Assembly (NCBI RefSeq): GCF_054482595.1
Contig: NZ_CM137008.1
DNA: 64,000 bases
Reading direction: 5' to 3' (one strand)
The notes under the pieces were generated by a model that ran no database searches, was not told the origin of the DNA, and worked only from the letters and a program-made list of their open reading frames with translations. A program made the position numbers and the translations under genes. Each line of letters starts with the position of its first letter. Within the stretch, counting starts at the first letter, position 1. Below, one piece after another: positions 62,749-62,903 of the stretch.

Positions 62749-62903
62749 TTAACTCAAACCGAGTTGTTTCAGGATTGCTTTACGCAGGAGTGACGCGGCA
62801 TGACACTGCGCCTCCCATGAAACCTGAGTTTCAAATGGTTGCGGCCATTCGCTACATCGACGCCCTGAGATTCGAGCCAACGTCTGAACTCGCTTTGTTT
62901 CAC
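62749..62903 (-). pseudogene. hicA: hicA toxin gene, apparently disrupted by an internal deletion/frameshift
   Basis: GTG start with GGAGG Shine-Dalgarno gives VKQSEFRRWLESQGVDVANGRNHLKLRFHGRRSVMPRH then shifts frame to a stop at 62769-62771; the HicA-like C-terminus LRKAILKQLGLS is encoded in another frame ending at 62749. Confidence 0.6.

Follow-up and report, generated by a model that had tools for sequence, protein, structure and literature searches.

The toxin gene hicA of the chromosomal type II hicAB locus of this E. coli strain has very probably been made a pseudogene by a 22-bp deletion bounded by TGCG repeats, which leaves HicB as an orphan antitoxin. The locus lies near the end of the window, that is, the whole stretch of 64,000 nucleotides that was analysed (contig NZ_CM137008.1). 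The deletion is not a peculiarity of this strain: it is a common allele that is already annotated as a pseudogene. The best reading of the feature is that of an ordinary toxin pseudogene beside an intact antitoxin, typical of the decay of toxin–antitoxin (TA) systems. The literature searches found no paper describing the deletion allele. What is new here is the frequency of the allele, the order of the mutational events, and the contrast between the substitutions in hicA and those in hicB.

The obvious reference is the hicAB locus of K-12 (b4532/b1438; type II; PDB 6HPB), which occupies the same place between yncJ and ydcR. The HicB proteins are identical, while the hicA gene of the window lacks 22 bp and has 44 codons instead of 58; the window adds the substitutions S21R and P39S, and an inverted repeat located upstream of hicA has one base changed in its spacer.

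The hicA reading frame and the 22-bp deletion

The gene order, rlhA(ydcP)–yncJ–hicA–hicB–ydcR, is that of K-12, with hicA and hicB on the minus strand. The hicA pseudogene (62749–62903, minus strand) is identified as the ortholog of K-12 b4532 by its position and by its near-identical nucleotide sequence, from synteny and from alignment to the hicA genes of K-12 and KL53. It spans 155 bp, from a GTG start codon (62903–62901) to the native TAA stop codon (62751–62749), which is now out of frame; the coordinates originally given to the feature were right.

Read from the GTG at 62903, the hicA frame is VKQSEFRRWLESQGVDVANGRNHLKLRFHGRRSVMPRHSCVKQS and ends in …PRHSCVKQS*; the translation of the minus-strand open reading frame 62903..62769, with its GTG start, is V/MKQSEFRRWLESQGVDVANGRNHLKLRFHGRRSVMPRHSCVKQS*. 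This leftover frame (62769–62903, minus strand) ends after 44 codons: residues 1–40 are HicA-like and are followed by VKQS and a TGA codon (62771–62769). The original prediction, in which the frame ran into SCVKQS and a stop, described it correctly. The translation of K-12 hicA (NC_000913.3, 1509286–1509462) is ...GSNHLKLRFHGRRSVMPRHPCDEIKEPLRKAILKQLGLS*, a protein of 58 residues that ends in …PRHPCDEIKEPLRKAILKQLGLS.

When the DNA of the window is aligned with that of K-12, KL53 and 2014C-4587, there is one gap, of exactly 22 columns. The corresponding K-12 sequence is CCC-TGCG-ATGAGATTAAAGAACCAT-TGCG-TAAAG, with TGCG on either side, so that the TGCG-N18-TGCG arrangement of K-12 is matched by a single TGCG in the window. 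This sole surviving copy of the 4-bp direct repeat, located by alignment at 62783–62786 (minus strand), is the deletion junction. The microhomology is exactly 4 bp, the bases that adjoin the two repeats not being alike. Short direct repeats on both sides of the lost segment, with one copy left, are the signature of replication slippage or of a microhomology-mediated deletion, one of which was presumably the mechanism. The loss of sequence between two TGCG repeats 22 bp apart shifts the frame after codon 40, and translation ends at the TGA found four codons on, giving a product of 44 residues.

Homology to HicA resumes in another frame after an indel whose length is not a multiple of three, which is what defines a frameshifted pseudogene in the sense of PGAP. 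The native C-terminus of HicA, LRKAILKQLGLS, is present in the window but out of frame: tblastn and alignment place the remnant that encodes it (…KAILKQLGLS*) at 62749–62782 on the minus strand. When K-12 HicA is compared to the window using tblastn, residues 1–40 match at 62903–62784 and residues 47–58 match at 62787–62752 in the other frame; the same search detects no further copy of hicA in the window. The split match agrees with the earlier claim that the expected C-terminus lies in a different frame, and the loss of about 22 bp between TGCG direct repeats that had been postulated is exactly 22 bp long and bounded by TGCG in the alignment. The K-12 HicA sequence on which that claim relied was correct, and the alignment of the region shows that K-12 does not share the sequence of the window.

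Apart from the deletion, three bases distinguish the window from K-12 over a stretch of 283 bp, at 62843, 62789 and 62946. The first two, on which the earlier note made no comment, change amino acids: A>C at 62843 (minus strand) results in S21R, and C>T at 62789 (minus strand), 3 nt upstream of the junction, results in P39S.

The deletion also creates an A_AAG motif (GTA AAG, 62783–62778), a tetranucleotide that is prone to slippage in E. coli. A −1 ribosomal frameshift at this position would restore the C-terminal frame, since the codons that follow GTA-AAG in the −1 frame, GCA ATC CTG AAA CAA CTC GGT TTG AGT TAA, encode the native C-terminus; the product would be a 51-residue, internally deleted HicA (…PRHSCVKAILKQLGLS). 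We find such a rescue hardly conceivable. No Shine-Dalgarno-like stimulator is read in the sequence upstream, the 53 nt downstream fold no better than shuffled sequences (−5.9 kcal/mol, z = −0.10), the protein would be devoid of residues 41–48 (the linker and the first turn of helix 2), and the motif itself arose by accident, through the deletion. A 64-codon ORF with an ATG start (MFTLLIYSAAGRR…LLRKAILKQLGLS; 62749..62943, minus strand) also enters the native C-terminal frame of HicA. We rejected it as a gene and consider it an incidental result of the frameshift, as its ATG falls within the inverted repeat and no ribosome-binding site is seen.

Predicted properties of the truncated product

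Members of the HicA family are RNases made of a single domain, the fold of which is dsRBD-like (PMC11594946). In E. coli HicA, the catalytic residue is known to be His23 (PMC8138530; PMC11594946), which HicB covers in the structure of the HicA–HicB complex (PDB 6HPB; PMC8138530). The AlphaFold model of K-12 HicA, obtained from a single sequence and of moderate confidence (mean pLDDT 69.7), consists of a helix (residues 3–12), three strands (16–19, 23–28 and 31–36) and a second helix (44–55), in agreement with the dsRBD fold given in PMC11594946. Since the frame shifts after codon 40, nothing of this second helix is left in the product. The 44-residue product retains helix 1, the three strands, Gly20 and the catalytic His23 (…NGRNHLKL…); of the features expected of a functional HicA_toxin (PF07927/COG1724), the conserved histidine is therefore present and the complete alpha-beta-beta-beta-alpha domain is not. 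The Pfam profile HicA_toxin (PF07927) does not match the 44-residue product, even at E<=10, while the 58-residue HicA of K-12, used as a control, is matched over residues 5–57 at E=3.7e-7.

Because the C-terminal helix of the dsRBD-like fold is absent, the product is most likely unfolded and non-toxic. The loss of this helix and the lack of a Pfam match both suggest that the toxin is inactivated in the allele of the window.

It may be objected that the truncated HicA still functions, either as a weaker toxin or as a HicB-binding modulator of the repression of the downstream promoter P2 (see below), in which case the locus would be an altered but working TA module. Indeed, the GTG start, the upstream region and residues 1–38, including Gly20 and His23, are retained, and the 44-codon frame is open in 8/8 of the deletion alleles examined. 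This open frame is no sign of constraint, considering that there are just three substitutions in the eight alleles. Moreover, all three (3/3) are nonsynonymous, which fits relaxed rather than purifying selection: S21R lies between the conserved Gly20 and the catalytic His23, and H38R and P39S fall in the PRH stretch, which we assume to be conserved in the HicA family. Considering also that the entire C-terminal helix is gone and that the HicA_toxin profile finds nothing, we regard a residual function of the 44-residue protein as very improbable, and we continue to consider hicA as a pseudogene.

The comparison of hicA to hicB goes in the same direction. In the set formed by the eight deletion alleles and the allele of an O111:NM strain, the nearest to them of the full-length alleles sampled, 3 nonsynonymous sites and no synonymous one are counted in the hicA remnant, against 1 nonsynonymous and 6 synonymous sites in hicB. 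The nonsynonymous site in hicB corresponds to E24K in AZ147, the only amino-acid change in HicB among the deletion alleles sampled. In seven diverse full-length alleles, hicA has 4 nonsynonymous sites (in 3 codons) and 9 synonymous ones. For the difference between the hicA remnant and hicB, a one-sided Fisher test calculated by hand yields p of about 0.03, on a small sample of related, non-independent sequences. The contrast is suggestive of a dead toxin beside an antitoxin that is still under constraint, the reading of selection on hicB being drawn from a handful of substitutions among 8 related sequences.

Distribution and history of the deletion allele

A 261-bp query around hicA matches 4,255 of the 5,426 complete E. 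coli genomes. The match covers the same 261-bp span, at an identity of at least 95%, in 813 genomes, and about 3,440 genomes have the full-length form (a 283-bp span, 80–95% identity). With a 50-nt query centred on the junction, which full-length alleles are unable to seed under megablast, 808 of the 5,426 complete genomes are matched (about 15%), at one place each; the sequence is identical to the query in 604 of them and has one or two mismatches in the other 204.

The feature is annotated as "mRNA interferase" in all of the junction matches sampled. Seven RefSeq records with the deletion allele were fetched (APEC O78, WCHEC035148, ECOR29, 2014C-4587, E94, EP91B and Ecol_AZ147), and in 7/7 PGAP has set the pseudo flag and added the note "frameshifted". 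The pseudogenes of APEC O78 (APECO78_RS11360) and 2014C-4587 (C6N23_RS17705) are the same 155-bp feature with the same junction as in the window, and the sequence of 2014C-4587 is 100% identical to that of the window over 261 bp. The window is thus another instance of this PGAP pseudogene allele, of which ECOR29, AZ147 and EP91B represent a sub-type without S21R and P39S. NCBI already contains the exact 44-residue product of the window, under the name "hypothetical protein", and also the variant of the ECOR29 type, one entry of which is named "HicA family" toxin component.

The deletion is real, inherited, common (about 15% of complete genomes) and already recorded in annotation. Small indels can be artefacts of sequencing or assembly, and it could be argued on this general ground, to which we found nothing specific to add, that the gap is false and that the strain really has an intact hicA. 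The probability of such an error is practically nil: 808 complete genomes that were sequenced independently have exactly this junction, the haplotype of the window (deletion, S21R and P39S) recurs elsewhere with 100% identity over 261 bp, and a 22-bp gap in non-repetitive sequence is no homopolymer slip. The assembly artefact that the original prediction had named as its possible undoing is excluded by the recurrence of the junction.

The order of events can be deduced from the distribution of the substitutions. In ECOR29, EP91B and AZ147 the deletion is present, and codons 21 and 39 encode the same residues as in K-12; the deletion allele of EP91B adds H38R. S21R and P39S are seen on deleted alleles only. 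When a synthetic version of the window haplotype, in which the 22 bp were restored, was searched among the 5,426 complete genomes, no full-length allele with fewer than three mismatches was found, the best match being the K-12 haplotype (280/283 identical, 98.9%). Because deletion alleles without the substitutions exist and no closer full-length allele was found, the deletion most likely came first and S21R and P39S later. The reverse order was considered and rejected, as no undeleted allele is nearer than the K-12 haplotype, with its three mismatches.

The hicB haplotype of the full-length O111:NM allele is almost the same as that of the deletion allele of ECOR29, which points to a haplotype of the O111:NM type as the background on which the deletion arose. 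We take ECOR29 and the O111:NM strain to be members of phylogroup B1, and APEC O78 to be a member of phylogroup C. EP91B and AZ147 have mosaic hicB haplotypes, and therefore a single origin followed by recombination is inseparable from recurrent slippage at the same repeats. We propose that the deletion would have occurred first, on an O111:NM-like haplotype, that the allele would have been inherited and become widespread, and that the remnant would then have gained S21R and P39S (in the type seen in the window) or H38R (in EP91B), as expected in the absence of selection.

The deletion is spread far more widely than the local haplotype of the window, since the 24-kb stretch from 40000 to 64000 (vgrG, an rhs element, pqqU, ansP, patD … hicAB) is matched at 99% identity or more in only 20 complete genomes. 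These include THO-010, XH990 and O157:H16 Santai; the identity is 95–99% in almost all other genomes, and the next-ranked ones, APEC O78 for example, are at about 98.5%.

A few individual genomes deserve a comment. The sequence of E94 differs in length by 1 bp; we rejected the idea that this restores the frame, because the additional T lies outside the gene, upstream of it, and leaves the 155-bp pseudogene as it was. In Ecol_AZ147 (NZ_CP018995.1), the neighbouring rlhA is also annotated as frameshifted. In E. coli HH97 (NZ_CP116409.1), a heavily scrambled, G-rich sequence of about equal length stands in place of hicA (positions 2830–3030 of the locus extracted, L015); no hicA is annotated, and hicB and the flanks are normal. 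Poor sequence quality at this place may be the reason, or hicA may have been lost a second time, independently. Last, the 261-bp query finds no trace of the hicA–hicB junction region in about 1,170 of the 5,426 complete genomes, which fits a report, in a preprint, that phylogroup B2 has lost hicAB (bioRxiv 10.1101/486399).

The intact antitoxin gene and its regulation

The hicB gene (62287..62703, minus strand; 138 amino acids and a stop codon) encodes an intact antitoxin and HTH repressor; its open frame extends upstream to an ATG at 62724, likewise in K-12. The product is an E. coli-type HicB, with an N-terminal HicA-binding domain and a C-terminal HTH domain, encoded at full length directly downstream of hicA. 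That hicB is intact had been predicted, and indeed the protein is identical to K-12 HicB at 138/138 residues; the five nucleotide differences between the two genes are all synonymous. The HicB accession WP_001270286.1 is found in genomes with a deleted hicA and in genomes with a full-length hicA alike.

Two promoters of the K-12 locus are described in the passages of PMC8138530, PMC7167474 and PMC11594946 that deal with its transcription. The upstream promoter, P1, has a CRP-S site, is activated by Sxy, and produces an mRNA that serves both genes. HicB represses the second promoter, P2, located downstream, the transcript of which yields HicB only. According to the same passages, which cite Turnbull & Gerdes 2017, an excess of HicA releases HicB from its operator.

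A simple promoter scan of the window picked up neither P1 nor P2. The region upstream of hicA differs from that of K-12 by two bases only, at 62946 and 63008. [quoted passage not shown] From its sequence and its location, this repeat is a plausible candidate for the HicB operator (hicO) at P2. Position 62946, in the non-coding spacer of the repeat, is A in the window and in 2014C-4587 and C in K-12; none of the other 13 alleles aligned has A at this position.

Without a functional HicA, HicB should autorepress P2 with no partner to derepress it. In the sequence of events that we propose, hicB would stay intact, the locus would become a simple, autorepressed orphan antitoxin gene, and additional transcription of hicB would presumably come from the Sxy/CRP-dependent P1.

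The loss of the toxin with retention of an orphan antitoxin is a general pattern in degenerate chromosomal TA loci. The locus of the window shares with them an inactivated toxin and an adjacent antitoxin/repressor that is intact, with mostly synonymous changes. It is unlike them in that the toxin gene comes first and that HicB has a dedicated promoter. Because of this HicB-only promoter, the expression of HicB is independent of the translation of hicA, and it may be that this makes the loss of the toxin especially tolerable.

Another hypothesis is that the orphan HicB present in about 15% of E. coli is selectively kept as a stand-alone factor, either to act as an autoregulated HTH regulator of further targets besides its own promoter, or to guard the cell against HicA-type toxins from outside; the loss of the toxin could then have been advantageous and have spread by recombination (in ECOR29, APEC O78 and others). 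We consider this unlikely. Regarding the guard function more particularly, we do not retain an anti-addiction role of HicB against a mobile HicA of the K-12 type, which is unsupported: among the matches listed, there is no genuine E. coli plasmid or coliphage with a close homolog.

Simple decay, with the toxin lost first and the antitoxin/repressor kept, is the reading that we favor. The deletion is of little importance alone, and its interest is that of a clean example of such decay. The strains that carry it, including APEC O78 and WCHEC035148, are natural hicA-null, hicB-plus backgrounds; we take these two to belong to ST23 and ST410-type lineages. The order of events, a deletion and then further changes in the remnant while hicB is unchanged, provides a small natural test of a role of HicB that is independent of HicA. 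It is important to note that surveys of TA systems based on PCR or on gene names would score these strains as hicAB-positive despite the broken toxin.

Regarding mobile elements, the nearest homologs of HicA among the matches listed are those of an Arsenophonus plasmid (81%), an Aeromonas plasmid (72%) and a Cronobacter phage (70%). Three PLSDB "plasmids", NZ_CP134663.1, NZ_CP141089.1 and NZ_OL790696.1, are E. coli records of 4.8–4.9 Mb and evidently mislabelled chromosomes; the few "plasmid" matches to hicA at high identity arise because such chromosome-sized records have been filed as plasmids.
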